Shown in pieces: positions 9,049 through 60,988 of a DNA stretch of 64,000 nucleotides (position 1 is the first letter of the stretch; each line of letters begins with the position of its first letter). The stretch spans positions 96,001 to 160,000 of the forward strand of contig CBDDTI010000747.1 in the NCBI GenBank assembly GCA_965233585.1, written 5' to 3'. Source of the DNA: a bacterium. Its GTDB lineage: Bacteria > SAR324 > NAC60-12. A program made the position numbers and the translations under genes. The notes beneath the pieces were generated by a model. That model was not told where the DNA came from. It ran no database searches and saw nothing but the letters and a program-made list of their open reading frames with translations.

Positions 9049-10041
9049 ATGCAGAATTTAAAGGTGAGAAGCCAAACCAATAAGGTTTTGAAAAACCAAG
9101 TCATCTGTGGAGATGCCCTAGAATTGCTTGATGAGTTAGAGGACAACTCTATTGATGCTGTCTTAACAGACCCTCCGTATTTTTTAGATAGATTGGGAAG
9201 TGATTGGAATGTCAAGAAAGTTCATAACCAAAAAAATTTAAAGGTTGTGCAATCCTTACCTGCGGGAATGAAGTTTGACCGAGAACAAGGGCAACAGCTT
9301 TACAAGTGGTATCTTCAAATTTCCAAAAAACTTTTTAGAGTTTTGAAGACAGGGGGCTTTTTCTTTTCATTTTCAAGTCCAAGACTTTATCATCGTTTGG
9401 CATGTGCAGTGGACGATGCAGGCTTTGAAATCAGGGATTGCTTCATCTGGCTTTACACTCAAAATCAAGCCAAAGCCATGAGTCTTAACCATTTTATAGA
9501 TAAGCTAGACATTGCAGAACGGGAAAAAGTACAATTAAAAAATCAATTAGAAGGCTGGAAGACTCCGCAACTGAAAAGTTGTTTTGAACCCATTGTTGTT
9601 GCTCAAAAACCTGTTGACCAAACTTACTTGAATAACATGATAAATCATCAAGTCGGCTTGCTTAATTCTCATGCTAAAACTCATCAAAAAATGTTCCCTT
9701 CCAATGTCATGTCCACTGATGAAATTTGTGACTTGATTGACAAAACATTTCTGGTTTCAAAACCAACAGCCAAAGAAAAAGGAACGTACAATCATCACAA
9801 AACTGTCAAACCTTTAGACTTGTGTAAACATCTTTTAAACTTATCGGTGTTTCATCAAGACGCAGTCGTTTTAGACCCTTTTGCAGGCAGTGGCACAACA
9901 TTAGTTGCATCAAAGGAGTTAGGATTCAACTACGTCGGTTTTGAATTAAACCAAGCCTACGTAGACATCACTCAAAAAAGACTAAAGTCTTTGGATGTTG
10001 AAGAATCCCCTCTTTTTCAATCACACGCTTCAAACACTTAA
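9049..10041 (+). CDS. Orphan N6A/N4C DNA methyltransferase (beta class)
   Basis: TDPPY catalytic motif before HKTVKP and LDPFAGSGTT; no adjacent endonuclease. Confidence 0.92.
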   Translation: MQNLKVRSQTNKVLKNQVICGDALELLDELEDNSIDAVLTDPPYFLDRLGSDWNVKKVHNQKNLKVVQSLPAGMKFDREQGQQLYKWYLQISKKLFRVLKTGGFFFSFSSPRLYHRLACAVDDAGFEIRDCFIWLYTQNQAKAMSLNHFIDKLDIAEREKVQLKNQLEGWKTPQLKSCFEPIVVAQKPVDQTYLNNMINHQVGLLNSHAKTHQKMFPSNVMSTDEICDLIDKTFLVSKPTAKEKGTYNHHKTVKPLDLCKHLLNLSVFHQDAVVLDPFAGSGTTLVASKELGFNYVGFELNQAYVDITQKRLKSLDVEESPLFQSHASNT

Positions 10042-10066: not shown

Positions 10067-11197
10067 ATGACAACAATCACACAAGAACAATTAGACCGCT
10101 ACACTATCCGCTCCAGCCAATTTGTTTCATGTAACCAAGCCTTTGTAGATTGCCGAACACCGGGATCTGACAAAAAAGAAAATTATTCATTCATTGGTCC
10201 GGGCGTCAGCCAGTCAGCAGACCAGTTTGTGAACTTAAAAGAACGGCACGGCTTTAATATCGGAGCCGCTGCCATGCCCAAAGGTTGTGTCAATAGTCTG
10301 CACACTCATTTTACTGCAGAAGTGTTTTACATCTACAAAGGAGATTGGGAGTTTAAATGGGGAAACAAGGGAGAACATACAGCAGTCTTGCCTGAAAAGG
10401 CAGTCTTTTCCCCAATGACGTGGATGTTTCGCGGCTTCCGTAATGTTGGGGTAGATGATGGCTTCATTTTCACAGTGCTTGGAGGTGATGAAACGGGGGG
10501 GATTATTTGGCATCCTGATGTTTTGAAAGAGGCGGCAACTCATGGATTATTCCTGTCTGTTGACAATCAGCTTTTGGATACTGTGGAAAATCCTGATGCT
10601 CTCAATGGCGTCCAATTATTTGAGCCACTGACAGAAGACCAGATGCAACAAACCATGCACCAAATCTCTCCTGAAGAGATGAAACAACGTATTGTGCTTT
10701 TTGAGGATTTGGTTTGGTCAGATGAGGCGTTGCTCTGTTCTAAAATTGATGAGCATCAATGCAGTGTCGCTCCCGTGATTGGCTGGGGAATGAGTGAAGA
10801 CAAAAACCACGTGCCTCCCATTTATACACCACATACTTTTTCGGTAGAGTGGCTCAAAATTCCTGTTGGCAATTCTGTTGCCATGCACCGACTTGCAGAA
10901 CACCAAGTTTTAAAGTTGCATCAAGGGACTTTAGAGGTTGTTCTCAATACGCAAGACGAAGGTCAAGTCTCCAACACCATTCAATCCAAAGACATTCTTT
11001 CTGTGCCTCCTCATTCATGGCGGACTTTCAAAAATGTTGGAAATGAGGACGTTTGCGTGATGGTCGTTTTAGAAGGCGATGCCCCTAAACATATTGAATG
11101 GTCAACAGAAGTCATTCAACAGGCACAAGACCAAAACTATGCACTAGATCATTGTGGATACATCACTTTGCACTCTCTGGTCAAACACGCCAAATAA
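10067..11197 (+). CDS. Double cupin-domain protein
   Basis: NSLHTHFTAEVF and a second cupin (AMHRLAEHQV..VPPHSWRTFKN); ATG at 10067 preferred over TTG at 9995, which overlaps the methyltransferase. Confidence 0.8.
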   Translation: MTTITQEQLDRYTIRSSQFVSCNQAFVDCRTPGSDKKENYSFIGPGVSQSADQFVNLKERHGFNIGAAAMPKGCVNSLHTHFTAEVFYIYKGDWEFKWGNKGEHTAVLPEKAVFSPMTWMFRGFRNVGVDDGFIFTVLGGDETGGIIWHPDVLKEAATHGLFLSVDNQLLDTVENPDALNGVQLFEPLTEDQMQQTMHQISPEEMKQRIVLFEDLVWSDEALLCSKIDEHQCSVAPVIGWGMSEDKNHVPPIYTPHTFSVEWLKIPVGNSVAMHRLAEHQVLKLHQGTLEVVLNTQDEGQVSNTIQSKDILSVPPHSWRTFKNVGNEDVCVMVVLEGDAPKHIEWSTEVIQQAQDQNYALDHCGYITLHSLVKHAK

Positions 11198-11300: not shown

Positions 11301-13448
11301 ATGAATCATCAAAATTTTAAAAAACATATAGAAGATATTTTAAAAGCAGATACAAGACTTTGGTATCAAGAAACCCACGAAGACGGAACTAAAACCACCA
11401 AATTAGACCAAATCTTACTCATTGATTTAGCTGAAAAACATGATGCAAGAATCTTGTCTTTGCTCTTTGCTGATGAAACTTTAAAAGAAAAGTTTTTTGT
11501 CAAAATAGGAGAAAGTTATGTGTTTAGAAATAGAGACTTTCAATTCTTTTTAGAAGAAAACAAAGTGGATAATTCTTATACAAAATATAAAAACCGTATT
11601 GGTTTAAGTGATGGCAAAAGGTTCTTAAAAGACAATAAAGAAGTCGTTTTAAATTTTCCTTTTAAGGATTGCACTTTAGAAGGTGGACAATCAACAGAAG
11701 AAGGACAAGATAGCTATTTTGAGATTGCGGGTCAAGCCCGCAATGACGGTCACAGTCATTCCGCACTTGATGCGGAATCTCCAGAGATTTATAACCAAAA
11801 ACAAGCCAAACGCAAAGAAATCTTTTTTAATGAAATTTTAGCAGCCGATGAGATAGACCGATTAAAAGATGAAAAAGCCTTAGTGAATTGGCAACGGTTT
11901 GATGTTGATGATAAAAATGTAGGGACAGACCCACGTGTCTGTCCAAATGAAAACGGACAAACAAATTTACACGATGGACAAACACATAGGTTTGTCCCTA
12001 CGGAAATAAAACGAGACCAAAACGGCACGATTAAAGAAAATCTTATCATTAAAGGCAATAACCTTTTGGCTTTGTATTCTCTCAAAAAACAATTTGCTAA
12101 GAAAATCAAACTCATTTACATTGACCCACCTTATAACACAGGAGGCGATGCCAATATTTTTACTTATAATAATAATTTTAACCATTCTACTTGGTTAACC
12201 TTTATGAAAAATAGATTAGAGGTAGCAAGGGAATTATTGAGGGAAGACGGATTTATTGCCATTGCCATAGACCATTGTGAACTTGGCTATTTGATTGTTC
12301 TAGCTGATGAGATTTTTGGAAGAGAAAATAGATTAGGGATTATTACTGTTGTGCATAATGCTGGTGGTAGACCTGATGCAACTTTTTTCTCTGTTTCAAA
12401 TGAGTATATGCTTGTTTACGCTAAGAATAAAAGCTATGCTAAACTTAAAAATTTTGATTTGCCAGATGAAAAATCTAAAAAATATAGATATAAAGATGAT
12501 AAAGGTTTTTATAAATTAGATATTTTTCACAGAGCAAGTCATAATTCTAATAGAGAAGATAGACCAAATTTATTTTATCCAATTTTTTACAGCAAAGAAA
12601 AAAATATACTTTCTACTATCAAGAAAGAAAATTTTATAGAAATTTATCCAATAGATAATCATGGAAATGAAAAATGTTGGAGATGGAGTAAAGAAAGAAC
12701 ACAAGAAAATATAGAAGAATTAGTTATAAAAAAAATAAAAAATCAGTATAGAATTTTTGCTAAAAGCAGATTAGAAAACAATAAAGGAGATAAACCAAGA
12801 ACTTTTTGGAACGATAGTAAATATTCTGGAAGCAGTGGAAGTATTTTATTAAGTAAACTATTAGGACACTCTAAACCACTTTCATTTCCCAAATCCCTTT
12901 ACACTATTTTAGACACTCTCAAACTAACAACAGAAAAGGACGACATTATTTTAGATTTTCATGCAGGTTCTGGAACAACGGGGCATGCTGTTTTGGCTTT
13001 GAATAAAGAGGATGGAGGAAACAGGAAATTTATTTTAGTAGAGCAGTTAGACCAGCATATAGACATTTGCAAAGAACGAATACAGAAAGTATTAGAAAAA
13101 GAAAATATTAATGATTCTTTTGTCTACTGTGAAATTGCCAAATGGAACGAACAAGCGAGGGAGCAAATATTAGCTTGTCAAAGTTTAGAACAACTAAAAA
13201 CTTTTTTTAGTGAAATGGTAGATAAATATTTTCTCAATTACAACCTGAAAATAAAAGAGTTTCAAGAAAAAGTTTTGCAAGAAGATGAATTTAAAAACTT
13301 ACCTTTGAACAAACAAAAAGAAATATTTATCACGATGCTAGATAATAATCAAATGTATGTGTGTAGAAGTGAGATGGAAGACGCAAAGTTTGGCATTAGT
13401 GAGGAGGACATTGAGATGACGAGGGAGTTTTATGGCAATAATAATTAA
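11301..13448 (+). CDS. mod: Type III restriction-modification methyltransferase (Mod) carrying in-frame REP insertions
   Basis: NLIIKGNNLLAL, IYIDPPYNTG, FPKS..IILDFHAGSGTTGHAV; paired with res downstream. Confidence 0.93.
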   Translation: MNHQNFKKHIEDILKADTRLWYQETHEDGTKTTKLDQILLIDLAEKHDARILSLLFADETLKEKFFVKIGESYVFRNRDFQFFLEENKVDNSYTKYKNRIGLSDGKRFLKDNKEVVLNFPFKDCTLEGGQSTEEGQDSYFEIAGQARNDGHSHSALDAESPEIYNQKQAKRKEIFFNEILAADEIDRLKDEKALVNWQRFDVDDKNVGTDPRVCPNENGQTNLHDGQTHRFVPTEIKRDQNGTIKENLIIKGNNLLALYSLKKQFAKKIKLIYIDPPYNTGGDANIFTYNNNFNHSTWLTFMKNRLEVARELLREDGFIAIAIDHCELGYLIVLADEIFGRENRLGIITVVHNAGGRPDATFFSVSNEYMLVYAKNKSYAKLKNFDLPDEKSKKYRYKDDKGFYKLDIFHRASHNSNREDRPNLFYPIFYSKEKNILSTIKKENFIEIYPIDNHGNEKCWRWSKERTQENIEELVIKKIKNQYRIFAKSRLENNKGDKPRTFWNDSKYSGSSGSILLSKLLGHSKPLSFPKSLYTILDTLKLTTEKDDIILDFHAGSGTTGHAVLALNKEDGGNRKFILVEQLDQHIDICKERIQKVLEKENINDSFVYCEIAKWNEQAREQILACQSLEQLKTFFSEMVDKYFLNYNLKIKEFQEKVLQEDEFKNLPLNKQKEIFITMLDNNQMYVCRSEMEDAKFGISEEDIEMTREFYGNNN
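11721..11781. repeat. Pair of GTCATT-type (CGTC-like) palindromic REP elements inside mod
   Basis: GAGATTGCGGGTCAAGCCCGCAATGACGG (11721-11749) and CAGTCATTCCGCACTTGATGCGGAATCTC (11753-11781); near-identical inverted copies at 60846-60874 and 60772-60800. Confidence 0.88.
11919..12001. repeat. GTAG-type REP doublet (REPIN-like) inside mod
   Basis: GTAGGGACAGACCCACGTGTCTGTCC (11919-11944) and inverted GGACAAACACATAGGTTTGTCCCTAC (11976-12001); same REP occurs in the RAYT gene. Confidence 0.9.
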
Positions 13449-13471
13449 AAATTTTAATAAAGGATAAGAAT

Positions 13472-16027
13472 ATGAAAAATGAATTAAAAATATTTATAAG
13501 TTATTCACATCAAGATGAGGAATATGTTACTGGATTTGAAAAATATTTTGAACCGATAAAGAATAAATATAATTTGAAGTTATGGCATGATACAAAAAAT
13601 AAAGCAGGCGATAAATTTCAGCAAAAAATAGATAAGAATCTAAATGATTCAGATATTATTCTTTTATTTGTTTCTGCTAATTTTTTTTCATCTGATGCTT
13701 GTAAAAAAGAATTAAAAGAATCTTTAAAATTAAGAAATGAGAAAAATGCTATTATTGTTCCTATCATTTTATCTACTTGTGCATGGAAAGAAACAGAATT
13801 AAAAGATTTATTATGTGTTCCAAAAGATGGAAAACCTGTATCAGATTTTGAAGACAAAAATAAAGCATGGGAGGATGTTAGTAACTCAATTAAAAAACAT
13901 ATTGAAGAATTGAATCAAATAAACAATTTAAAAATAGAAGACAGTTTTAAAAAATTTTTAGAAAGCTGTGAAATTTTGGAAAAGGCTCATCAAAATAAAC
14001 AAAATGTTTCATTAGAAGATATTTTTGTTTCTCCTCAATTAGAATGTTTTGATGAACTTAGAGAATCTGAAGAGACAACTATTAATTATCAGGAACTAGA
14101 AGAAAATATTACTGATTACAAAGCTATTGTTATAGCAGGAGATGACCAATCTGGAAAAACTACTCTATGTAAAAGATTATTTTTAGCACTAAAACAAAAA
14201 AGATATTTACCAGTTTATATTTTTGATAAAGATAAAAAATTACAAGGAAAAATAAAGAATAAAATTGAAAAGGAATTTAAAGAACAATATAACTCTGAAA
14301 ATATAGAATATTCAAAAATTATGAATAGGATTATCCCTATAATAGATAATTTTTACTTGGCTAAACAAAAAGAAAATCATATAAAAAATCTATCTGAATT
14401 TAAATTTTCTATTCTTATCATAGATGATATTTACGGTTTAAATATCAAAGACAAAGATATTATCAAAAAACATAAGCATTTTAGAATAAAAGAGTTTTTG
14501 CCTACTTTAAGAAATGATTTAATTCAAAAGTGGTTGCAATTAACAGATAAAGATAGTCATAATAACGATTCTTATAAAGAATTAGATGAAAAGACAAAAT
14601 TAATAGATACAACTTTAGGAAAGATTATAGGTAATGGAATTGTTCCATCATATCCATTTTTTATATTAACTATCCTTAGCACTTACGAAACAGTTAAACC
14701 TTTAGATGAAAACATTACTTCTCAAGGGCATTGCTATCAAGCATTGATTTACATTGCTTTAAGAAAAGAAATTGATAATAAGGATATAGATATTTATCTT
14801 AATTTTATGAATGTGATTGCTTATAAGTTCTTTGAAACTCAAAAAAAAGAATTTAATGAAGAGGAATTAAATAGTTTCATAACTGAATATAAAGAAAAGT
14901 ATAATCTTCCTTTTCAAGAAGACAATTTACTTTCCAAATTAATCAGAGTAAATATTTTGAAGAAAGATTCTTTTGGCAACATTAGTTTTAAATACGATTA
15001 TTTATATTTTTATTTTGTAGCAAAATATATTGCGGAGCATATTGATGAAAACAAAAAAACTATTGATAATATCATCGCTAATCTCCACAAAAACGAAAAT
15101 GCTTATATTACTATATTTATATCTCATCATTCTAAAGATAATTATGTTCTTGATGAAGTAGTTTTAAATGCTATGTGTTTATTTGATAAATATGAATCTG
15201 CAACTTTAGAAAAAAAGGAAATCAGCTTTTTGGATAATGAAGTAAAAAATATTATTGATGCTTCACTCCCTAAACCAGATGAAAGTTCAGAACAACATAG
15301 AGCGAAACAATTAGAAATAGAAAGTCAAATTGAAGAGTCAAAAAATAAAAAACCTTTAAATGAAGATGAACAAGATATAGACCCGCTTGATTTAGAAATA
15401 AGACGAAGTATTAAAACGGTAGAAGTTATGGGTAGAATTATCCGAAACCGTGCTGGTTCTTTAGAAAATGATAGATTAAAACAAATTTTTGAAAATGGAA
15501 TGAATGTTCATCTAAGATTCTTAAAATTATTTTTAGAGTTGATGAAAGATAAAGATCAACAAGAATTTATTATAGATTTTATACGAGATAGATTAAATAA
15601 AACAGTTAAAGAATCTAAAGAGAAGATATCAGAACAAGAATTAAAAAAAATAGCTGAAAAAATATTTTGGAATTTAAATTTTCAATTCTTATATGTTGTT
15701 ATCAATAAAACAATACATTCATTAGGATCAGATAATTTAACAAATATTACTAACAATGTGTGTGATAAAATAAATACTCCTGCTTCTTTTTTAATCAAAC
15801 ACGGTATTTTAATGTGGTATTCTAAAAATCTTCAAATTGATAGTCTTTATAAAAAAACAACAGAAAAGACGTTTTCAGATACAGCAAAAAAATTAATAAA
15901 TTATTTTATTGTATCTTATTGTTATATGCACAAAATAAATTATAAAGATAGACAAAAATTAGAACAAAATTTTGGCTTTTCATCTAAAAAATTACTTCTT
16001 AATAAACCTCAAAAACCAACGCAATAA
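13472..16027 (+). CDS. TIR domain + P-loop NTPase (STAND-like) protein, putative anti-phage effector
   Basis: N-terminal TIR (IFISYSHQD..SANFFSSDACKKEL..IVPIIL); Walker A GDDQSGKTT; IIPIIDNF; long helical C-terminus. Confidence 0.85.
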   Translation: MKNELKIFISYSHQDEEYVTGFEKYFEPIKNKYNLKLWHDTKNKAGDKFQQKIDKNLNDSDIILLFVSANFFSSDACKKELKESLKLRNEKNAIIVPIILSTCAWKETELKDLLCVPKDGKPVSDFEDKNKAWEDVSNSIKKHIEELNQINNLKIEDSFKKFLESCEILEKAHQNKQNVSLEDIFVSPQLECFDELRESEETTINYQELEENITDYKAIVIAGDDQSGKTTLCKRLFLALKQKRYLPVYIFDKDKKLQGKIKNKIEKEFKEQYNSENIEYSKIMNRIIPIIDNFYLAKQKENHIKNLSEFKFSILIIDDIYGLNIKDKDIIKKHKHFRIKEFLPTLRNDLIQKWLQLTDKDSHNNDSYKELDEKTKLIDTTLGKIIGNGIVPSYPFFILTILSTYETVKPLDENITSQGHCYQALIYIALRKEIDNKDIDIYLNFMNVIAYKFFETQKKEFNEEELNSFITEYKEKYNLPFQEDNLLSKLIRVNILKKDSFGNISFKYDYLYFYFVAKYIAEHIDENKKTIDNIIANLHKNENAYITIFISHHSKDNYVLDEVVLNAMCLFDKYESATLEKKEISFLDNEVKNIIDASLPKPDESSEQHRAKQLEIESQIEESKNKKPLNEDEQDIDPLDLEIRRSIKTVEVMGRIIRNRAGSLENDRLKQIFENGMNVHLRFLKLFLELMKDKDQQEFIIDFIRDRLNKTVKESKEKISEQELKKIAEKIFWNLNFQFLYVVINKTIHSLGSDNLTNITNNVCDKINTPASFLIKHGILMWYSKNLQIDSLYKKTTEKTFSDTAKKLINYFIVSYCYMHKINYKDRQKLEQNFGFSSKKLLLNKPQKPTQ

Positions 16028-16707
16028 TGACCCCTAATCCCACAATCAAATCCCGCAAGCCCAACCGATTAAAAGGTTATGGTTATTCTAAGGAAGGTTA
16101 TTATTTTGTTACGATTTGTGTTCAAAATAGGTTGTGTTTGTTTGGGGATATTATAGGTGGCAAGATGGTTTTGAACAGTGCAGGAGAGATGATTAAAAAA
16201 TGGTGGTTAAAATTGCCTGAGAAATTTGAAAATATTTGTTTTGAAGATGTATTTGTTGTCATGCCAAACCATATTCATGGAATTATCATTATTGAAAATA
16301 ATAAACCCATAAGGACAAATCCATGTGTCAATGTAGGGACAGACCCACGTGTCTGTCCAGAAGATAAAAATATCAATTCAACAGACCCATCCGTCAATGT
16401 AGGGACAGACCCACGTGTCTGTCCAGAAGATAAAAATATCAATTCAGCAGAGGACAAACACGCGGGTTTGTCCCTACAAGGTTTGTCATTATCAGAAATG
16501 ATGCAATGGTTTAAAACCATGACCACAAATGAATATATCAAAGGGGTAAAAAATCAAAATTGGCAGGGTTTTGACAAAAAATTATGGCAAAGATCATTTT
16601 ATGACCATGTCATTAGAGATGAAAAAGCATTATTCAATATCCAAAATTACATTATTGAGAACCCGTTAAAATGGGAAAATGACGATTATAATTTAAATAA
16701 GATATGA
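16027..16707 (+). CDS. REP-associated tyrosine transposase (RAYT, Y1 HUH family)
   Basis: YFVTICVQNR, HUH motif VMPNHIHGII, WQRSFYDHVIR, YIIENP. Confidence 0.92.
   Translation: MTPNPTIKSRKPNRLKGYGYSKEGYYFVTICVQNRLCLFGDIIGGKMVLNSAGEMIKKWWLKLPEKFENICFEDVFVVMPNHIHGIIIIENNKPIRTNPCVNVGTDPRVCPEDKNINSTDPSVNVGTDPRVCPEDKNINSAEDKHAGLSLQGLSLSEMMQWFKTMTTNEYIKGVKNQNWQGFDKKLWQRSFYDHVIRDEKALFNIQNYIIENPLKWENDDYNLNKI
16327..16477. repeat. GTAG REP copies and a 66-bp-period tandem duplication inside RAYT
   Basis: GTAGGGACAGACCCACGTGTCTGTCC at 16333 and 16399, inverted copy at 16452-16477; translated as VNVGTDPRVCPEDKNINS twice. Confidence 0.9.
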
Positions 16708-19478
16708 CTCCAACTAACAACCTACACCAAACCATCTCCACTCAAAAACAAGCACTTAAAAACTTTCAACCTGAAATTTTTGAGATACCGAAATACATTA
16801 CTGATAATCTCAAACATTCTTTTTTTGATTGGCAGAGAGAGGCATTTGAAAATTTATTATTTTACGAACATCCAAATTCCAAGCTAAAAAAATCCCCCAC
16901 TCACTTAATGTTTAATATGGCAACAGGAACGGGAAAAACACTGCTGATGGCAGCAAGCATTTTGTATTATTACAAGCAAGGTTATAGACATTTTATATTT
17001 TTTGTCAATCAAAATAACATCATAGACAAAACAGAAAATAATTTTATAGAAAATACCCACAACAAATATTTGTTTACAGAGAAAGTCATTATAGAAGATA
17101 AAATTATCCCGATTGAAAAGGTCAATGTTTTTAGTGATGAACCGCAGGGCATAGAAATCAAATTTACCTCTATTCAAAAGCTCTATAATGATATTCACCT
17201 ACAAAGAGAAAACCAAACAACTTTAGACGATTTACAAAGCAGAAATATTGTGATGCTTGCCGATGAAGCACATCATCTCAATGCGAATACTAAAAAAAAT
17301 GAACAAGAAAGTTTGATACACACAGAACTAAAAGGGAACACAGGAAAAGAAATAGTAGAGAGAAAAGGTTGGGAACATACGGTTATAGAGTTGATATTAA
17401 ACAAGCAAGGTTATCAAGGACAGGAACAAAATAAAAATGTATTATTAGAATTTACAGCAACCATTCCTGATAATAAACAAGTAGCCAATAAATACCAAGA
17501 CAAAATCATTTATCAATTCACCTTAAAAGAATTTCTACAAGCAGGTTATACCAAAGAGATTAATCTTATCTCTTCTACTTTGGATAAAAAAGAAAGGGTT
17601 TTACAGGCATTACTTTTTCAGTGGTATAGGCATCAAATTGCACTTAAAAACAAGATTGCTAATTTTAAACCTGTGATTTTGTTTAGAAGCAAAACCATTG
17701 AAGAATCTAAACAAGATTATGAAGAATTTTTAACTTGTATAGAAGATTTAGAAAGTAAAGATTTTGATTTTTGTCAAACCATAGCAAGTAAAATTCATCA
17801 AGCTCATAAAACTAACCCAAATGAAATCGGAAAATCCAGAACAGAGCAGGTTTTAAACTATATCCAAAAAAATAATATTCAATTTGTAGAGATTAGCGAT
17901 TGGATAAAACAAAACTTTAAAGAACAAAATACCATTATCACTAATTCTAAAACCAACACAACCAAAAAGGAAAAAACAGAAGAAGAGACAGAGAAATTGC
18001 TTAATTCTTTAGAAGATAAAAACAACCATATCCGAGCTATTTTTACGGTAGATAGATTGACAGAAGGTTGGGATGTGCTGAACCTTTTTGATATTGTGCG
18101 GCTGTATCAAGGGCAAAATACAGGGGGAAGCACGAAAAAGACCCCTGAAGCTACTACCAAAGAAAAACAGTTGATAGGTAGAGGGGTACGGTATTTTCCT
18201 TTTCAATTTCAAGATCAACAAGTCAACAAAAGAAAATTTGATAATGATTTAAACGATGAACTTAGGATTTTAGAAGAATTGTTTTATTATACCTATGATG
18301 AAGATTCAAAATATATTTCACACTTAAAAGCAGAATTGAAAAAAGATGGTTATATAAAAGACGATAGAACCATTAAAACCTTTGATTTAAAAAGTGATTT
18401 TAAACAAAGTTGTTTTTATAAAGAAACTATTATTTGGTATAATGAACAAAGAGATAACCCAGAGAGAAAAAAGAAGGATTTACAAAATATCAAACAAGAT
18501 TTTAGCTTTGAATATAAAATTCAAGACTTAGAGCTAACAGAGCAAAAAGGTATTTTAGATAAAACAGAAAGTCAAGAATCATTACAAATAGCTGAACAGA
18601 GAAATAAAAGAATTAGTAAAAAATTTAGTGAGATTGAAAAACATATTTTTTACAAAGCAATCAACATCAAAGCAAAAGCAGAGGGTTCTCTTTTTCAATT
18701 TGAGAATTTAAGAAAGGAATTAGCCATTACAAGTATAGATGATTTAAGGAAAGATGAATTTTTAGGGAATTTGGAACTCAAAATAATTACCAATACGAAT
18801 TATGAAGAGATAAGCAATAAAGATAAATTAGATTTAACATTAAAATTTTTAGATAAAGCTATCAATCAACTAAAAGAACATATTCACCCCAAAATAGGCA
18901 GCGAGTTTAAAGCAGGCAATTTTGATACATTTTTTAAACATCCAAAAAGGAAAAGTATTGAACAAAACAATTTAGATCTAACTATTCCAAAAGACAATCA
19001 ATGGTATGTTTTGGATACTTTTGTTGGAACAAACGAAGAAAAAGAACTTGTGCAATTCATCAAAAATAGCATCAGCAATTTGGAGGAAACCTATCAAGAG
19101 ATTTATCTTTTAAAAAATGAAGAAGTCTATAAAATTTATAACTTTAAAGATGGAAAAGGCTTTGCCCCAGACTTTCTTTTATTCCTGAAAACAAAGGACA
19201 AACAAAACACAGGCGTTGCCAGCACAGAAATTTATTACCAAATTTTTATAGAACCAAAAGGGGATCAATTCAAAGATTTGGAAGGTGGCTTTAGAAACTC
19301 TAAAGAAAGTTGGAAAGAGGAGTTTTTAGAACAAATCACCAAAAAATATGGTTTTGGTAAGGTAATAAAGGCAGAAAATCCAAATTATAGATTGATAGGT
19401 CTGCCTTTTTATAACAAAGCAAGTCAACAAATCTTTGAAGAGGAATACAACAAACTTTTAAAATCTGATGAGTTTTGA
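16704..19478 (+). CDS. res: Type III restriction endonuclease (Res) subunit
   Basis: MATGTGKT, LADEAHH, EFTAT, LTEGWDV, QLIGRGVR; C-terminal PDF..FIEPKG nuclease motif. Confidence 0.92.
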   Translation: MTPTNNLHQTISTQKQALKNFQPEIFEIPKYITDNLKHSFFDWQREAFENLLFYEHPNSKLKKSPTHLMFNMATGTGKTLLMAASILYYYKQGYRHFIFFVNQNNIIDKTENNFIENTHNKYLFTEKVIIEDKIIPIEKVNVFSDEPQGIEIKFTSIQKLYNDIHLQRENQTTLDDLQSRNIVMLADEAHHLNANTKKNEQESLIHTELKGNTGKEIVERKGWEHTVIELILNKQGYQGQEQNKNVLLEFTATIPDNKQVANKYQDKIIYQFTLKEFLQAGYTKEINLISSTLDKKERVLQALLFQWYRHQIALKNKIANFKPVILFRSKTIEESKQDYEEFLTCIEDLESKDFDFCQTIASKIHQAHKTNPNEIGKSRTEQVLNYIQKNNIQFVEISDWIKQNFKEQNTIITNSKTNTTKKEKTEEETEKLLNSLEDKNNHIRAIFTVDRLTEGWDVLNLFDIVRLYQGQNTGGSTKKTPEATTKEKQLIGRGVRYFPFQFQDQQVNKRKFDNDLNDELRILEELFYYTYDEDSKYISHLKAELKKDGYIKDDRTIKTFDLKSDFKQSCFYKETIIWYNEQRDNPERKKKDLQNIKQDFSFEYKIQDLELTEQKGILDKTESQESLQIAEQRNKRISKKFSEIEKHIFYKAINIKAKAEGSLFQFENLRKELAITSIDDLRKDEFLGNLELKIITNTNYEEISNKDKLDLTLKFLDKAINQLKEHIHPKIGSEFKAGNFDTFFKHPKRKSIEQNNLDLTIPKDNQWYVLDTFVGTNEEKELVQFIKNSISNLEETYQEIYLLKNEEVYKIYNFKDGKGFAPDFLLFLKTKDKQNTGVASTEIYYQIFIEPKGDQFKDLEGGFRNSKESWKEEFLEQITKKYGFGKVIKAENPNYRLIGLPFYNKASQQIFEEEYNKLLKSDEF

Positions 19479-31335: not shown

Positions 31336-33723
31336 ATGGTCTTTATTATGAAGAAGTTTTTAGCTTGTGCAGTTTTGCCTTTGACTCTTGCTGCTTGTGG
31401 AGAAATAGCTGTGGAAGAAAAACAGACTGAAAAGCCTGAAGAAATAAAGGTCACAGAAGCAACCTATCATGTTTCAGACAATCTTTTAACGTTGGTAGGC
31501 TCAAACCTTGACCAAGCAACAGATAGTCAGATTGAAGACCTCAAACTCAGTTGGCAGTCTTTTCAAAAAGAGTTAACCGATGGTCAGTATTCTGCGACAG
31601 GAAACAATGAAGAAATAGCATCAGCAACAGATGCTGATGATTTGGAACAAGGTCAGTATGCTTATAGAGAGACTCACAAAGATCAACTATGGGTTAAACT
31701 TGCAAACAGCGATGCTTTGGCTTTTGAAGACTTTGCAGCGAATGAAATTTTGGAATTAGCTCAAGGCAATACTTCAGCAGTGAAGCTAGGCGTTGGTTCA
31801 AATGCTTGGGGAGGGTTAAGCACTGACGCTACCATGAAAGTCACTATCAGGTTAGGCAATCCCTCACCCAAAAAGAAGCCCTCCAATCCACCGAAACAAG
31901 AACTTAATCCTGAGATACCTCAAAAGAAACCTTCCAATCCTCCAAAACAACAATCTAGCCCCAAACAGTCTCAACCCAACAAGGCAAAGCCCCAAGCAAA
32001 TGTCAAAGTTTCTGACCAAAAACCACTTCTCTGGTCAAAAATTTTGGATAAAACAGAAACGTGGAGACCCCAACGCAGACATCATGCCAGCGTGTCTTTT
32101 CAAGACAAGATGTGGATTTTCGGAGGAAATTCTGCGAGATCTAGAAATGACATTTGGAGTTCTGCTGATGGCAAGAATTGGAAGCGAGAGAAAGAACATG
32201 CAGAATGGCCTGCCACCAACTTCTTGAAAGTTTTTGAATTTCAAAACAAGCTCTGGCTAATTGGGGGAAGGCGTGAGGGTGATATTTGGGTGTCTTCCGA
32301 TGGTGTCCAATGGACTAAGAAAGCCTCACCAGATTTTCTAAAGAACTTATGGAGATTTGATGTGACGGTGTTTAACAACGCTATTTGGATCACAGGAGGA
32401 TACGACTGGGAGGAAGAGGTGACGAGAGGTGCGACCGATGGAGTTTGGACATCGGCAAACGGAGTAGAATGGACTCAAGTGACGTCTGACAGTGGTTGGG
32501 AACCTAGGCTAGAACATACCACTTTCGTTTTTGACGATAAATTATGGGTGATGGGAGGAAATGCAAGATTTTTTACGAATGATAAGCCTCTCAAAGACCT
32601 TTGGAGTTCCTCTGACGGCAAAAGTTGGACAAAAGAAAAAGATGACTTGAACATTGACTTCCCAGAACAAGTTATTTTTGACAACAAGATTTGGTTGTTA
32701 GATTCCGATGACACAGTTTGGTACTCTACGAATGGTCAAGATTGGCAAGATCAAGCCCAAATTCAAGGATTTGGATTGCACGAGTTTAGCAGTCTGGTGT
32801 TTCAAGACAAAATCTGGGTGATTGATAAAGATGCACGGAGTCTTTTAAGCTCTGCTGATGGAAAGACTTGGAATATAGAATCGCCAAATTATTGGGCGCC
32901 CAACACATCAAGTGTTGTTTTTAAAGATAAAATATGGACACTGGGCGGTTTTTGTGGTCAGGAGTGTTGGAATAACAATGTTTGGAGTTCTGCTGACGGA
33001 GTCAACTGGACAGAAGAACAGGCAGCAGCACCTTGGAAACCACGTTATAATCACACGAGCGTCGTGTTCAAAGATAGAATCTGGGTCATTGGTGGTTATC
33101 AGTCATGGGAGGCTGACATCTGGAGTTCTGCTGATGGAAAAACATGGCAAAAAGAAGTTGACCAAGTGGATTTTTCTGATAGTCAACGTTGGATTATTGC
33201 CAGAATGACAAGTCTTGTCTTTAAAGACAGAATTTGGGTTCTAGGTGCAGGAGATACACACAACGGAAACTACAAGAAAATTTATAGCTCTGACGATGGT
33301 AAGAATTGGAGGGAAGAGGGAACTTTTAACTTTCCTTTTCGTCATGCTAGTCTTGTCTTCCAAAATAAAATGTGGATTTTAGATAGTGAATTTAAGGGGG
33401 CTTGGAGTTCTGCTGATGGCAACACTTGGACGAAAGAAAGCACACTTCCAAGTGATTCATTTAACAATTTTTATGCTGTTGTCCTAGACAAAAGAATTTG
33501 GATTTTTGGAGGCTCTAGTAGCACAGGAAAAAACAGCCCTGTTTATAGTTCTGCTGACGGAAAAACATGGCAAAAAGAAAAGACCCCTGTGCCTTGGGTG
33601 GGAAGTAGCACACTTGCATCCGCCCTAGTCTTTCAAGACAAAATTTATGTCTTAGGTGGGTTTAATGGACAAAAAGTAGAATATGAAAACATCGTTTGGA
33701 AAGCAGAATTAGAAACCGAATAA
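31336..33723 (+). CDS. Surface lipoprotein with Pro/Lys linker and Asp-box/kelch-like (W-S-S-x-D-G-x-x-W) beta-propeller repeats
   Basis: Lipobox LAAC; about ten repeats of VF-x-DKIWVLGG..WSSADGKTW; start may be the ATG at 31348. Confidence 0.82.
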   Translation: MVFIMKKFLACAVLPLTLAACGEIAVEEKQTEKPEEIKVTEATYHVSDNLLTLVGSNLDQATDSQIEDLKLSWQSFQKELTDGQYSATGNNEEIASATDADDLEQGQYAYRETHKDQLWVKLANSDALAFEDFAANEILELAQGNTSAVKLGVGSNAWGGLSTDATMKVTIRLGNPSPKKKPSNPPKQELNPEIPQKKPSNPPKQQSSPKQSQPNKAKPQANVKVSDQKPLLWSKILDKTETWRPQRRHHASVSFQDKMWIFGGNSARSRNDIWSSADGKNWKREKEHAEWPATNFLKVFEFQNKLWLIGGRREGDIWVSSDGVQWTKKASPDFLKNLWRFDVTVFNNAIWITGGYDWEEEVTRGATDGVWTSANGVEWTQVTSDSGWEPRLEHTTFVFDDKLWVMGGNARFFTNDKPLKDLWSSSDGKSWTKEKDDLNIDFPEQVIFDNKIWLLDSDDTVWYSTNGQDWQDQAQIQGFGLHEFSSLVFQDKIWVIDKDARSLLSSADGKTWNIESPNYWAPNTSSVVFKDKIWTLGGFCGQECWNNNVWSSADGVNWTEEQAAAPWKPRYNHTSVVFKDRIWVIGGYQSWEADIWSSADGKTWQKEVDQVDFSDSQRWIIARMTSLVFKDRIWVLGAGDTHNGNYKKIYSSDDGKNWREEGTFNFPFRHASLVFQNKMWILDSEFKGAWSSADGNTWTKESTLPSDSFNNFYAVVLDKRIWIFGGSSSTGKNSPVYSSADGKTWQKEKTPVPWVGSSTLASALVFQDKIYVLGGFNGQKVEYENIVWKAELETE

Positions 33724-33845
33724 TTGCCTTGAGTCTTTTTAAAAAAATCTTGTTTTACAACTTTTTTTATGGCATAGCTTGTCAAAAAAAACAATATAGT
33801 TATACTTTTCATATAAATTTCAAAATCATAACTTGTGAGGACAGC

Positions 33846-35972
33846 ATGAAAAAGTTGCTTATTTGGAGTTGGTTGCTATTTTTTATTGTTGGATGCGGAG
33901 ACCAAGAAGAAGAGAACATCAATACTAAAGTCAGTGAAAAAGTAGAGAAACTACAAGAGGAACAAGAACCTCCAGAATCTTCAAAGGAGGAGGAGGAACA
34001 ATTCCAAGACAAACAAGAACAACATCAGAATTATAAGGAATCTCAAGATATTCCCTTGAAACGTCCTGCTGTTCAAAAGAGTAAACCCAAAAAGGATAAA
34101 ACTCCGAAAAACCCCGTTGTTCAAAAAAGTAAACCTAAAAAAGATAAAACTCAACCCAAGCCAAAGCCCCAAGCAAATGTCAAAGTTTCTGACCAAAAAC
34201 CACTTCTCTGGTCAAAAATTTTGGATAAAACAGAAACTTGGAGACCACGAAGAAGTTCTTCCGCTGCTATTGCTTTTCAGGGAAAACTTTGGATTTTTGG
34301 TGGGAGCAGTGTTGGTAGAAAAAATGACATTTGGAATTCTGTTGATGGCAAGAATTGGACAAGAGTCAAAGAATTTGCCGAATGGTCACCGCGTCTTTTC
34401 CATGCTGTGTTTGAGTTTAAAAACGAGCTTTGGTTGATAGATCGTGATACTAGACCCAAAAACGATATTTGGAAATCTGCTGATGGCATCAATTGGACTT
34501 TGGTCAAAGATGCCTCAAAAGTGATTGAACGTTTTTTTATTCCTTCTGTTACGGTTTTCAAAAACCAAATTTGGATTATGGGAGACGTTAAAACTGACTC
34601 TGATGATTCATCTAGTGAGATATGGGTTTCTTCTAACGGTACAGAATGGACACAGATCGCAGTTGACCAAGATAACATATGGGAAGCCAGAGACTTTCAT
34701 CAATCCTTTGTATTTGATAACAAAATTTGGGTTGCAGGTGGAAGAGAATTTTTAGGTAAAAGGTTTGAAGATATTTGGAGTTCTGTTGATGGAAAAGTTT
34801 GGGTGAAAGAATTTGATGCCTCTCAAGCATCAGAATCTGACAGTCCTGACCATATTTACAATGCTGATTATGTTGTTTTTGATAACCAATTGTGGATGTT
34901 AGATTATACTTGGGATGATGAAACATACGCCTCATCAGGAACGGTTTGGAGTTCTGCCGATGGTCAAACATGGCAAAAAGAAGAGCAAATTCAAACATTC
35001 AATTCGTCAGAGTTCAATAGTCTAGTTTTTAATCATCAACTTTGGGTGATTGATTCAGCTGAACGCGATATTTGGAGTTCTGTTGATGGAAAAACTTGGA
35101 AGATAGAAGTTCCTAATTACTGGGCGCCCCATCATGCTAGCACTGTCTTTAAAGACAGAATTTGGATCATGGGTGGTTTTTGTGGTTCAGATTGCTGGAA
35201 CAACAATGTTTGGAGTTCTGCTGATGGAATCAATTGGCGAGAAGAACTAGATCATGCGGCTTGGAAACCTCGCTACATGCACACGGGCGTTGCCTTCAAA
35301 GATAGACTGTGGGTTATAGGTGGTTATCAATCATGGGAGGCTGACATCTGGAGTTCTGCTGATGGAAAAACATGGCAAAAAGAGTTTGACCAAACGAAAA
35401 GTCCAGAGCGATGGATTGGTCCTAGGATGACGAGTCTAGTTTTCAAAAACAAAATCTGGGTATTAGGAGCAGGAGATTATGATTCTAATACTGATAGGAA
35501 TGGTAAGGAGGTTTGGAGTTCTGCTGATGGCAAAAACTGGCAAAAAGAAGCAGAGTTGAATATGCCTTACAGTTATAGACATAGCAGTTTTGTATTCCAA
35601 AATAAAATCTGGTTCTTTCCTACTACATGGATTCAGACTAAGGATTACTATAGTTCCACAGATGGTCAGAAATGGGAGAAATCAGGAGAATTGCCTCAGC
35701 TGCCAAACTATAGCTATGTTGCTCCTTTGGGCGACAGAATTTGGTTTTTTGGAGGAGAAAAAGGTCAAGATCCTGATACCTCAATTGTTTATAGCACCCG
35801 AGATGGCAAAACATGGTCTAAAGAAAAAAACCCTGTTCCTTGGAATGATCAGGGACATAATTACGGTTCTGTTCTGACATTTAAGGATAAGCTCTATTTA
35901 TTGGGTGGATTCAATGATGAAAAGTCAGAATATGAGAATGTGGTTTGGCAAGCAGAATTAGAAACCGAATAA
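33846..35972 (+). CDS. Paralogous beta-propeller surface lipoprotein
   Basis: ATG at 33846 with GAGG RBS; lipobox IVGC; same repeats and same AELETE C-terminus. Confidence 0.82.
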   Translation: MKKLLIWSWLLFFIVGCGDQEEENINTKVSEKVEKLQEEQEPPESSKEEEEQFQDKQEQHQNYKESQDIPLKRPAVQKSKPKKDKTPKNPVVQKSKPKKDKTQPKPKPQANVKVSDQKPLLWSKILDKTETWRPRRSSSAAIAFQGKLWIFGGSSVGRKNDIWNSVDGKNWTRVKEFAEWSPRLFHAVFEFKNELWLIDRDTRPKNDIWKSADGINWTLVKDASKVIERFFIPSVTVFKNQIWIMGDVKTDSDDSSSEIWVSSNGTEWTQIAVDQDNIWEARDFHQSFVFDNKIWVAGGREFLGKRFEDIWSSVDGKVWVKEFDASQASESDSPDHIYNADYVVFDNQLWMLDYTWDDETYASSGTVWSSADGQTWQKEEQIQTFNSSEFNSLVFNHQLWVIDSAERDIWSSVDGKTWKIEVPNYWAPHHASTVFKDRIWIMGGFCGSDCWNNNVWSSADGINWREELDHAAWKPRYMHTGVAFKDRLWVIGGYQSWEADIWSSADGKTWQKEFDQTKSPERWIGPRMTSLVFKNKIWVLGAGDYDSNTDRNGKEVWSSADGKNWQKEAELNMPYSYRHSSFVFQNKIWFFPTTWIQTKDYYSSTDGQKWEKSGELPQLPNYSYVAPLGDRIWFFGGEKGQDPDTSIVYSTRDGKTWSKEKNPVPWNDQGHNYGSVLTFKDKLYLLGGFNDEKSEYENVVWQAELETE

Positions 35973-36128
35973 TTGCCTTGAGTCTTTCTCACAACAAACC
36001 TTGTCACCTAGTCTTGTTGACTTTGAAAGCCTTGCTTAGGTTCTTTGAGAATCTTTAATGTTTTAAAGAATTAGAAAGATGTTAAGTTTTTGAACATCTT
36101 CAAACTTAACGTTGTCTTAATTTGGTTC

Positions 36129-40809: not shown

Positions 40810-41502
40810 TTATTTAGTTTTAGGTTTAAGCATTGCAAGCAATTTCTTGGAAGCAATGGGAAGTAATCCAACGAGGCTAAAGGCAATCGCTAACTCCAAA
40901 GATAAAATATCTGAAACCTGTTGAATTTGTGAAAGAGTTGTGCCAGCGTAAACATAAACAGCTGTCCCCAAAAGCATGCCGATTTGAGACACCCAATAAA
41001 AATGAACAGCCTTCACTGGTAAAAGAGCCATGAGCATATTGACTAAAAAGAACGGAAACAATGGCACAAGCCTTAACGCAAACAAATACCACAGTCCTTC
41101 CTTTTCAAAGGCTTCATTACATTTTGTAAGTGCATTGCTATATCGCTTTTGCACAGCCTCTTTGAAAAGATAACGTGTAATCAAAAAAGCAATAAAAGCC
41201 CCGAGTGAGCTGGCAAATGAGGCAATGGGAAGTCCTAACCCAAATCCAAAAATAGCTCCTGATAACAAGGTCAGCAAAGCCGCAATAGGCAGAGACAAGG
41301 CACTAGAAGCCGTGTAGATTGCAAAAAACACAATCACCACCGTCCATTGATTTTCAGCATAAAGATTTTGCCATTCTTGATAACGTTCTTTGATGTATTC
41401 TAGGCTCAAAACCTCTCCTAAACCTGAGAGAAAAAAGCCTACGATTGCCAAAATGATCGCAAGCACTAACAGTGGCTTCAAAAATTTTTGATATGGTTTC
41501 AT
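40810..41502 (-). CDS. TVP38/TMEM64 (DedA/VTT) membrane protein
   Basis: LLSGAIFG, LRLVPLFPFFLVN; start at 41502 couples (ATGA) to the upstream stop. Confidence 0.88.
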   Translation of the reverse strand: MKPYQKFLKPLLVLAIILAIVGFFLSGLGEVLSLEYIKERYQEWQNLYAENQWTVVIVFFAIYTASSALSLPIAALLTLLSGAIFGFGLGLPIASFASSLGAFIAFLITRYLFKEAVQKRYSNALTKCNEAFEKEGLWYLFALRLVPLFPFFLVNMLMALLPVKAVHFYWVSQIGMLLGTAVYVYAGTTLSQIQQVSDILSLELAIAFSLVGLLPIASKKLLAMLKPKTK

Positions 41503-42350
41503 GGTAAAAATTGTTTTAACCAAGACAGTCTTTTGCACGATGAAAATTTTTGATGTAAGGTAACCAAATCATCTAAAGTCTCCATGTCAAGTTTGTTGTC
41601 TAGGTAGTGAAGAGTTGTAGAAAGTTGATGTATAAACTGCTTAAAGGTGTCATGTTGTGAGTAAGCAACATTCTTAAAGACAAAGCACGGCAAAAATTGT
41701 TTTAACCAAGATAGCCTCTTGCATGATGAAAACTCTTGATGCAGGGCAATCAAATCATCTAAGGTATCCACATCAAGTTTGGTATCTAGGTAGTGAATGG
41801 GAGTTGTAGAGAGTTGATGCACAAGTTGCTTGAGAGTGTCATGTCGTGAATAGGTAACATTTTTAAAGACAAAGTCAGGTAAGTCTATCGCCCCCCCAAA
41901 CAAATAAAAACCACCATCTACACTTGCACCAATAACAATTTGCTTCGGATTTTGCTCAAGATGACGAGATGCCTCAAGCAATAAATCAGATTCTAATTGG
42001 GGACTGTCTGTCCCGATGATGATGACTGAATCGTAATTTTGTTTGAGATGAGAGTAAATACTGTGCAGTCTATCGCCCAGAGTCCCTTGACCTGTCCAAA
42101 TGACTTGAAAATCTTGTTCCCGGTGATTTTGCCAATATTTATGAGTGACGCCTTCTTCTTCTGCAACTGCAATGTATAAATCAATTTGTTCACTCTTTAT
42201 AGTTCCAACAGTCTGGCAGACCTGTCTTTGAGATTGATGATAGAAACACTCTGCCTGATCCTGACCAATACTTTGTGCAAGCCTCGTTTTGACTGGGGAA
42301 AGTCCAACTGTCTTAGCAAAAATGGCTATAGCACACTGAGTTCGAGACAT
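41499..42350 (-). CDS. DUF2064/TIGR04282-type transferase (arsenosugar-cluster associated) with duplicated C-terminus
   Basis: AIFAK..VKTRLA, GTLGDRL, IIGTDSPQL, IGASVDGGFYL, DVDTLDDL. Confidence 0.85.
   Translation of the reverse strand: MSRTQCAIAIFAKTVGLSPVKTRLAQSIGQDQAECFYHQSQRQVCQTVGTIKSEQIDLYIAVAEEEGVTHKYWQNHREQDFQVIWTGQGTLGDRLHSIYSHLKQNYDSVIIIGTDSPQLESDLLLEASRHLEQNPKQIVIGASVDGGFYLFGGAIDLPDFVFKNVTYSRHDTLKQLVHQLSTTPIHYLDTKLDVDTLDDLIALHQEFSSCKRLSWLKQFLPCFVFKNVAYSQHDTFKQFIHQLSTTLHYLDNKLDMETLDDLVTLHQKFSSCKRLSWLKQFLP
41503..41874 (-). repeat. Diverged tandem duplication of about 186 bp
   Basis: FVFKNV..CKRLSWLKQFLP occurs twice at the protein end. Confidence 0.9.
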
Positions 42351-45956: not shown

Positions 45957-46056
45957 AGGAGACCTAAATCATAATATTTACTTAAATTCCCCACATTGTA
46001 ACATATAAGATAAAATTTTGACTAAAAAATCCTATCTTATAAAAAAATTGGCATTG

Positions 46057-46739
46057 TTAAGTAATAAGTGATAGCTGATTATTCCGTTTTGCCATGAACA
46101 AAAGAACAGAATATTGTAATGCTTTAAGAGACTTGCTGTAACATTTGGTTTTCCTTCTCATTCTTGCCAAGAAATGTCTCAAGAGAGAATTATACCCTTC
46201 TATCGTGTATGTTTCTGCCTTGGAACATGTATGAATTTCTTTGGGAATGACTTGTTTGTAAGCCTTGCAGTGATCAGTCATCACCTGAAGAGGTTTTGTT
46301 TCCTTGACCTTGTCCCATAAATGCCTACAGGCTTTTGAGTCTCTGTTTCCAAGCACATAATTGATAAATTGCTTCCCACGTCTATCAACAGCAATCCAGA
46401 GCCAGCAGTAGTTTTTTTTGACTGGATGTAGGTGTGCATTTCATCAATTTCCATAATTTCAATGTCTGTGTCCTTTCTTAATGCCTTGAGCTGTTCGCCA
46501 AAACTACAGACCCAATTATAAACTGAAACATGAGAACAATTCAGCAAACGACCGATTGACCTGAAACCAAGACCCTCCAAATACAACTCTAATGCTCTTC
46601 TTTTGATCTGTGGTGAGATTTGACCACGATAGGACTTGGTATATTGATAGTTGCAGGCATTGCAACGCCTCCTCGGTTTACCATATAAGAAACCATTCTT
46701 AACCGTCTTCTCACTTTCACATCTAGGACACGACTTCAT
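46057..46739 (-). CDS. insAB: IS1 transposase InsAB' (programmed -1 frameshift), copy 1
   Basis: Zn finger CPRC..CNAC, HTH, EIDEMH; A8C slip site (T8 at 46412-46419) leads into the KNYCWLWIAVD..TDH..IEGYN frame. Confidence 0.9.
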
Positions 46740-46775
46740 TGCTACACCATGACTATCAATTCAATTAAATGAACT

Positions 46776-47535
46776 GGCATTGTTAAGTAATAAGTGATAG
46801 CTGATTATTCCGTTTTGCCATGAACAAAAGAACAGAATATTGTAATGCTTTAAGAGACTTGCTGTAACATTTGGTTTTCCTTCTCATTCTTGCCAAGAAA
46901 TGTCTCAAGAGAGAATTATACCCTTCTATCGTGTATGTTTCTGCCTTGGAACATGTATGAATTTCTTTGGGAATGACTTGTTTGTAAGCCTTGCAGTGAT
47001 CAGTCATCACCTGAAGAGGTTTTGTTTCCTTGACCTTGTCCCATAAATGCCTACAGGCTTTTGAGTCTCTGTTTCCAAGCACACAATTGATAAATTGCTT
47101 CCCACATCTATCAACAGCAATCCAGAGCCAGCAGTAGTTTTTTTTGACTGGATGTAGGTGTGCATTTCATCAATTTCCATAATTTCAATGTCTGTGTCCT
47201 TTCTTAATGCCTTGAGCTGTTCGCCAAAACTACAGACCCAATTATAAACTGAAACATGAGAACAATTCAGCAAACGACCGATTGACCTGAAACCAAGACC
47301 CTCCAAATACAACTCTAATGCTCTTCTTTTGATCTGTGGTGAGATTTGACCACGATAGGACTTGGTATATTGATAGTTGCAGGCATTGCAACGCCTCCTC
47401 GGTTTACCATATAAGAAACCATTCTTAACCGTCTTCTCACTTTCACATCTAGGACACAACTTCATTGCTACACCATGACTATCAATTCAATTAAATGAAC
47501 TTAATATCGCATATCACTTATAGTTTAACAATACC
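46776..47535 (-). mobile_element. Inner intact IS1-family element (760 bp)
   Basis: Both IRs present; 8-bp TSD AATGAACT at 46768-46775 and 47536-47543. Confidence 0.94.
46783..47465 (-). CDS. insAB: IS1 transposase InsAB' (programmed -1 frameshift), copy 2
   Basis: Near-identical to copy 1; slip site T8 at 47138-47145. Confidence 0.9.
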
Positions 47536-60771: not shown

Positions 60772-60988
60772 GAGATTCCGCATCAAGTGCGGAATGACTG
60801 AGAGGTTTTGTAGGCGTGTCTTTTCGTCATTGCGTGCTTGTGTTTCCGTCATTGCGTGCTTGACCCGCAATCTCTCTTGTTTTCTATCCGCGTCATCGCT
60901 CACTTTGAAAACTGTCATTGCTGACCTTGACCCGCAATCTCTCTTTTTTTTCTTAAAACACAGGACAAACACTTGGGTTTGTCCCTAC
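60772..60988. repeat. Intergenic REP cluster (GTCATT-type and GTAG-type)
   Basis: Copies at 60772-60800, partial ~60825-60840, 60846-60874, ~60913-60941, and GGACAAACACTTGGGTTTGTCCCTAC at 60963-60988. Confidence 0.88.

Follow-up and report, generated by a model that had tools for sequence, protein, structure and literature searches.

The window, meaning the whole 64,000-nucleotide stretch of DNA that was analysed, carries a Type III restriction-modification (RM) operon in which the genes for a TIR-NTPase protein and a REP-associated tyrosine transposase (RAYT) lie between mod and res. The features of the locus are listed below.

11301..13448, + strand: mod, Type III methyltransferase Mod, 715 aa (PADLOC MTase_III, E 1.7e-158; Pfam PF12564 and PF01555)
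11721..11781, no strand assigned: REP doublet of family B, in frame in the N-terminal part of mod (two hairpins, z -4.7)
11919..12001, no strand assigned: GTAG-headed inverted REP pair of family A, in frame in mod upstream of DPPY (z -4.1)
13472..16027, + strand: TIR-NTPase, 851 aa (ORF)
13472..13921, + strand: TIR domain, about residues 1-150 (Pfam TIR_2, E 2e-17, residues 7-116)
13922..16027, + strand: STAND/NACHT-like NTPase, winged helix and all-helical C-terminal putative sensor (NF053861, PDC-S60, PF24406 and predicted model)
16027..16707, + strand: RAYT, 226 aa (ORF; HUH motif H82/H84, Y208 and N212 intact)
16330..16478, no strand assigned: three family-A REP units, in frame in RAYT between the HUH and Tyr motifs (z -8.4)
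16704..19478, + strand: res, Type III restriction subunit Res, 924 aa (PADLOC REase_III, E 5e-101; Pfam ResIII)

The gene order on one strand and the overlaps described in the first-pass annotation were borne out by the ORF coordinates. The stop of the TIR gene and the start of RAYT have one base in common (TAATG), the RAYT stop and the res start overlap at ATGA, and mod is separated from the TIR gene by a 23-nt gap. The gene after res, a host-like TauE-family gene of 43% GC, also overlaps res, by 11 nt, and overlap alone is therefore a weak sign of common function. That annotation had overlooked the REPs: mod contains two families of them, inserted in frame, and RAYT one. In the translations we found DPPY and SAM-binding motifs in Mod, and helicase and C-terminal nuclease motifs in Res, the set of methylase, helicase and nuclease motifs that marks a Type III RM system. 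The block is AT-rich, with a GC content of 23.7% in the TIR gene, 29.7% in res and 34.4% in RAYT against 42-44% in the flanking host genes. A promoter scan was at chance level (46 vs 44.0). Public contigs were identical to the stretch from 11755 to 16356 and from 16417 onward, and those that reproduce the operon end only at REP repeats. Three of the four runs behind this support are from one sample, possibly the source itself; contigs from a second sample of the same study span the TIR-RAYT and RAYT-res joins.

Elsewhere in the window, an N6/N4 DNA methyltransferase gene (9049-10041) lies 1.3 kb upstream of mod with no obvious adjoining nuclease, and the host has several further methylase-like genes. 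Long ORFs of about 46-codon repeats, a near-duplicated pair that possibly encodes propeller-type surface proteins, occupy 31980-36000 and 63748-64000. At 46040-47065, 41500-41874 and 62519-63637 there are a duplication of 300 bp or more with 99% identity and two further regions of tandem repeats. The host assembly holds about 2.9 Mb in a few contigs of bacterial coding density (0.83-0.89, four measured), where the REPs are found, and 732 small contigs (8.5 Mb) of similar GC that are probably non-bacterial (median coding density 0.15 in a sample of 40).

The TIR domain retains a glutamate at the position used by NADases, as had been proposed. This residue, Glu80 in helix C, aligns with the catalytic Glu of Cat1 and of plant TIRs and is invariant in all 77 aligned homologues, which were chosen from the best 120 of 652 matches. 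The predicted TIR model superposes on the TIR of RPP1 with a Z of 15.6 (rmsd 2.3, 134 aligned residues). The best sequence match among solved structures is Cat1, which we take to be an NAD-degrading TIR, and the domain is a putative NADase.

The remainder of the protein matched NCBIfam NF053861 (DS-8) with E 6e-139, residues 128-835 aligning with positions 281-993 of the 994-position model. Because its N-terminal domain is not that of DS-8, the protein scores 464.5 bits and misses the cut-off of 790. PADLOC PDC-S60 (E 3e-72) and Pfam nSTAND4 (PF24406) also matched, and homology to the DS-8/PDC-S60/nSTAND4 body runs the full length of the NTPase and C-terminal region. According to the accessible text of PMC13092281, DS-8 is a single-gene metallophosphoesterase-NACHT system that protects E. 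coli and in which effector and NTPase are both required. The window protein is likewise a single gene and is colinear with DS-8 over about 710 residues (NTPase, winged helix and C-terminal helical region; DefensePredictor, NF053861, PMC13092281), but it carries TIR_2 at the N-terminus in place of the metallophosphoesterase, is nested in a Type III RM operon and falls, with its sub-threshold score, outside DS-8 in the strict sense. The cut-off was passed by four metallophosphoesterase relatives, two from the body search described below and two from fetched genomic loci, and identity between the window protein and such members ranged from 22% (L098) to 35% (P0200). The N-terminus of the PDC-S60 model, a PADLOC candidate (Payne et al., bioRxiv 2024.01.29.577857), is not matched by the window TIR. 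In one homologous locus (L178:6888-7943), a separate gene just upstream of the TIR-STAND gene matches the first 165 positions of that model. On sequence grounds, we assign the 851-aa protein to the DS-8 family as a TIR-bearing form. The first-pass annotation had called the locus a candidate new defence system and had named a match to a described system as the refuting outcome; such a match, to DS-8 and PDC-S60, is what we found. It is by way of family membership that a role in defence gains support.

An NLR-like STAND fold, also suggested earlier, was corroborated by structure prediction. The model of the window protein (pLDDT 85) consists of a STAND module and an all-helical tail; its best Foldseek matches were NLRC4 (E 2.5e-9), RPP1 and NOD2, and it superposed on NLRP3 with a Z of 13.8 (rmsd 10.0, 318 aligned residues). 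The predicted layout is that of STAND and NLR-like receptors: effector, P-loop NTPase, helical and winged-helix regions, and a C-terminal helical putative sensor. The intact Walker A noted at first pass was confirmed, with G223, K229 and T230 conserved in 77, 76 and 77, respectively, of the 77 homologues, and Walker B, with D292 conserved, was likewise judged intact. At the second Walker B acid position the window protein has N293, a residue found in 12 of the 77 homologues where 64 have Asp, and this counts against the stand-alone sensor reading preferred below.

The same effector-STAND-helical sensor layout, with swappable effectors, characterises the Avs/bNACHT NLR-like receptors, for which the available portions of Lee et al. 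(PMC12803255, PMC13581612) describe 90 sensor clusters and Avs families including Avs11-24. As a lead, the C-terminal region of the window protein resembles NACHT-associated helical domains; the Avs models of NCBIfam and PADLOC gave no match to the protein. Within the literature searched, in which subscription papers are thinly covered, neither a paper describing a TIR form of DS-8 nor a tested TIR-bearing member of the family turned up, and no main text mentions 'PDC-S60'; the tables of Lee et al. may classify the family.

A search with the body alone (E 0.001) recovered 2,467 representatives of clusters at 50% identity, and an N-terminal domain was present in 125 of the best 150. By profile, 88 of these 125 were TIR-like (three weakly so), and two further TIR N-termini grouped apart, one of them confirmed by Pfam. 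The other 35 comprised conflict-type nucleotidyltransferase (8), metallophosphoesterase (8), cyclase-like (8), alpha/beta hydrolase (3), trypsin-like (2) and PNP (2) domains, and Mrr, SIR2, caspase and HD (one each). These labels rest on one or two members checked per group, with the second trypsin and PNP assigned by motif only and the cyclase-like label (P0188 group) taken from motifs with no Pfam match. Near this query, TIR is thus the commonest of about ten effector types, and the occurrence of 88 + 2 TIRs and 35 other effectors on one body follows the swappable-effector pattern of NLRs. The nucleotidyltransferase (P0125) and cyclase-like groups, eight members each, are possible signal makers on an NLR-like receptor.

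To place the family in its genomic contexts, we fetched 163 loci (80 of 106 genome, 80 of 250 metagenome and 3 viral, two of the last being duplicates of genome loci), or 137 after near-copies were collapsed. Requiring at least 3 kb of upstream and 2.5 kb of downstream flank left 55 loci to be counted and excluded 82. The genome loci were found by an alignment-based scan; a single-sequence scan of genome contigs gave no match, and neither did 50,697 phage records. An RM-type gene lay within 6 kb in 21 of the 55 loci, a lower bound since the RM seeds (Pfam-named, and drawn in part from these same loci) cover neither C5 methylases nor most Type II nucleases, and in 34 none was detected. In the large contigs of the host, the same seeds matched 456 of 2847 windows (16%), so that the homologues are enriched near RM genes, as the first-pass annotation had anticipated. 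Ten of the 55 were nested within RM genes: eight in Type I operons upstream of hsdR, one in a Type III operon and one between methylases. Copies adjacent to RM genes without being nested lay beside IIG, McrBC, Mrr and GmrSD. Among the 34 loci with no RM gene, 14 had some PADLOC match nearby and 20 had none (150 of 159 neighbours scanned). Three further relatives lay 5.5 kb from a methylase, beside a IIG gene and among insertion sequences. Searching 60 relatives recovered one body match, of the metallophosphoesterase form, and neither the same locus nor an empty site. The neighbour of a Fibrobacter homologue (L072:1-4428) bears TcA domains of the Tc toxin complex and is unrelated.

These contexts bear on the proposal that the protein guards the RM system, monitoring the restriction complex or sensing phage anti-restriction proteins and activating its TIR once restriction is inhibited, in the manner of PrrC in EcoprrI. 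PrrC is likewise a killing gene embedded in an RM operon and provides the precedent (in the part of PMC12707154 available), and eight of the nested copies sit between hsdS and hsdR, as prrC does. Nested copies also cluster on the tree: in a 56-row tree the nested label required 6 changes where shuffled labels needed 10.2 on average, none of 500 shuffles being as low, and well-supported branches force at least 3 changes. The window protein and its sister L036 (SH-aLRT 100), both between mod and res, form one such pair. However, kin have a common context, and clustering does not prove function. Moreover, PrrC is an ABC ATPase anticodon nuclease that is found almost always in Type I RM and, as the accessible text of Payne et al. 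(bioRxiv 2024.01.29.577857) has it, is almost exclusively embedded, whereas 45 of the 55 loci of the present family are not embedded and the ten that are span three kinds of RM context. One homologue is fused in frame to HsdS (L035:6504-10571, a single ORF of nucleotidyltransferase, HsdS and TIR-STAND), which would favour the guard. It is a singleton, possibly a lost stop or an assembly error; a relative at 85% identity lacks the fusion and the two domains occur together nowhere else among 119 further matches listed, and we set it aside as a Rosetta stone. Co-folding Mod (residues 1-712) with the C-terminal region (555-838) scored 0.00 against a mark of 0.32, which speaks neither for nor against contact. 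No RM gene was detected in 34 of 55 loci, and the nested copies are spread over Type I operons, a Type III operon and a site between methylases, which favours a stand-alone passenger over a dedicated Type III guard; a guard of RM in general is, in our estimate, unlikely.

L036, on a Spirochaetia chromosome, is informative about how such genes arrive. It is 59% identical to the window protein and is its closest relative with fetched context (P0002-P0005, P0007 and P0008, at 55-67%, lie outside the context set), and its gene order is mod-TIR-res, as in the window. The Type III systems that house these two genes show hardly any relationship, the Res proteins giving a best local match of E 0.005 over 30 aa and the Mod proteins 29% identity over 156 aa, which is hard to reconcile with a single binding surface on the RM complex. 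The TIR-STAND gene is bounded by a direct repeat of 281 bp at 99% identity (L036:7708-7988 and 10620-10900), which comprises the end of mod and the start of res and leaves a 104-codon mod remnant. We infer that this fits a one-crossover insertion into a formerly coupled mod-res pair; the gene looks like a cassette insertion and could be lost again through recombination between the repeats. In the window itself no duplication of the mod/res junction was found. Among 85 fetched loci of the Mod family, mod and res were both visible in 22, of which 17 had them adjacent and 5 had inserts, with no TIR-STAND or RAYT among the latter. The host's second Type III locus (L097:5539-14005) is possibly a cassette array, with two mods of different specificity regions, mod-end repeats and, in its mod-res region after each of the mods, PIN, DUF5615 and HEPN/nucleotidyltransferase genes of toxin-antitoxin type. 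The L036 repeat and this toxin-antitoxin-type cargo argue for the mod-res interval as a cargo slot. In the available text of Payne et al. (bioRxiv 2024.01.29.577857), whose PDC set was drawn from genes embedded in RM, BREX and DISARM, such embedding is described as common and its meaning as open. A narrower version of the guard is that the window protein and its Spirochaete sister form a lineage that enters mod/res junctions as a repeat-flanked cassette and guards restriction there, responding to anti-restriction proteins such as DNA mimics or to stalled Mod/Res. We hold this to be rather improbable; if true, a restriction enzyme would have an NLR as its guard, and the trigger of the DS-8 family would be identified.

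Alternatively, the protein might be a stand-alone sensor whose TIR, rather than draining NAD+, produces a cyclic ADP-ribose variant as a signal to an effector encoded elsewhere. Thoeris TIRs match the window TIR weakly (ThsB, E 9e-34, PADLOC), and the nucleotidyltransferase and cyclase-like forms of the family could make signals too. Yet Thoeris combines a stand-alone TIR with an adjoining ThsA-type effector, and here the TIR is fused to a STAND module, with no ThsA-type neighbour in the window operon and none recurring in 80 loci. Nor is there any other recurrent partner, the widest neighbour cluster apart from RM subunits covering no more than 5 of 80 loci. Among the other effectors borne by this body, most kill directly (nuclease, SIR2, protease, PNP), and Cat1, the best solved match, presumably degrades NAD. 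We judge a signal-making TIR quite improbable.

The RAYT, the sole copy found in the assembly (relatives made up 7342 of 7433 candidates), appears from its motifs to be an ordinary enzyme of the subclass-2.4 type. Quentin et al. (PMC6006769) describe REPs inserted in frame between the HUH and Tyr motifs as characteristic of TnpA-REP subclass 2.4, and the window RAYT has these and long GTAG REPs; the assignment uses the HUH/Tyr motifs and REP insertions, not a subclass HMM. It differs from that subclass in having no flanking intergenic REPs and in lying inside an RM operon. The first unit of the family-A pair in mod is identical to two copies in RAYT, an exact variant present in 3 of the 43 GTAG REP copies in the genome, all three in this operon, which suggests local copying. 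The family-B doublet, of which one unit has about 135 copies in host contigs, lies in an insertion missing from five related Mods; family B also occurs at 60772-60874 of the window, and no matching second transposase was found in the assembly. Both REP inserts in mod lie in variable loops upstream of DPPY, outside the specificity domain, and so leave specificity untouched, which runs counter to the earlier idea of RAYT as a specificity diversifier. With RAYT in none of the 163 TIR-STAND loci, and TIR-STAND or RAYT in none of 85 other Mod-family loci, the four genes do not recur as a unit and RAYT is supported as a passenger, the other role considered at first pass. A related RAYT (L288:1489-2163), overlapping its neighbours between hsdS and fic/hsdR of a Type I operon, indicates that RAYTs can ride in RM operons that have no TIR gene; this placement was seen in one of four non-own matches in the phylum sample (1.5-kb flanks). 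A contig joint of 11945 to 16328 was considered as a REP-to-REP deletion and rejected (one contig, depth 2, a 28-nt side no longer than the repeat, poor fit), and the idea that one RAYT group is RM-linked was not borne out by the accessible text of PMC5581495. That RAYT is a working part of the locus, diversifying Mod or moving a REP-bounded cassette (mod catalytic region, specificity domain and TIR-STAND) between RM loci, is highly improbable, for although the identical REPs of mod and RAYT form direct repeats that share a reading frame and lie 4.4 kb from each other, and the Type I operon offers a parallel, RAYT is absent from the homologous loci, the REP-bearing loop holds a different insertion in a paralogous Mod, and in-frame REPs are normal for subclass 2.4.

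The reading we prefer, with a probability of roughly 0.7, is a stand-alone NLR-like phage sensor with an NAD-depleting output that hitch-hikes in an RM cargo slot. What the analysis itself shows is the anatomy of the locus, the family match, the fold, the conservation of motifs and the gene contexts. An apparently intact Type III RM operon would have acquired, between mod and res, two passengers independently of each other. One would be an NLR-like defence protein that is encoded by a single gene and belongs to the DS-8/PDC-S60/nSTAND4 family. Following what the accessible parts of PMC12803255 and PMC13581612 describe for Avs receptors, and DS-8 itself, a phage protein would bind the helical C-terminal region, the putative sensor; the STAND module would exchange nucleotide and then oligomerise; and the clustered TIR domains would cut NAD+ through Glu80, arresting the infected cell. 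By analogy with the DS-8 family and other STANDs, defence, oligomerisation, NAD+ cleavage and independence of RM are all expected, and the protein would work without Mod, Res or RAYT, although it is probably transcribed with the operon and moves along with the RM genes. The second passenger would be an ordinary RAYT spreading GTAG REPs, one pair of which sits, presumably harmless, in a Mod loop. A stand-alone passenger is favoured by the end-to-end match to the body of DS-8, which protects as one gene. Against it stand the RM association over background, the clustering of nested copies and the mod-X-res order of the sister L036. The DS-8 assay in MG1655 also leaves RM sensing possible, as this strain has RM systems of its own.

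The receptor family is widespread in bacteria and archaea, as its 2,467 clusters indicate. For DS-8 the phenotype is validated, and the TIR version offers a simple NAD+ readout for finding what the family senses. The locus is also a clean case of RM operons as cargo slots, one that allows embedding as guarding to be tested against embedding as hitch-hiking.
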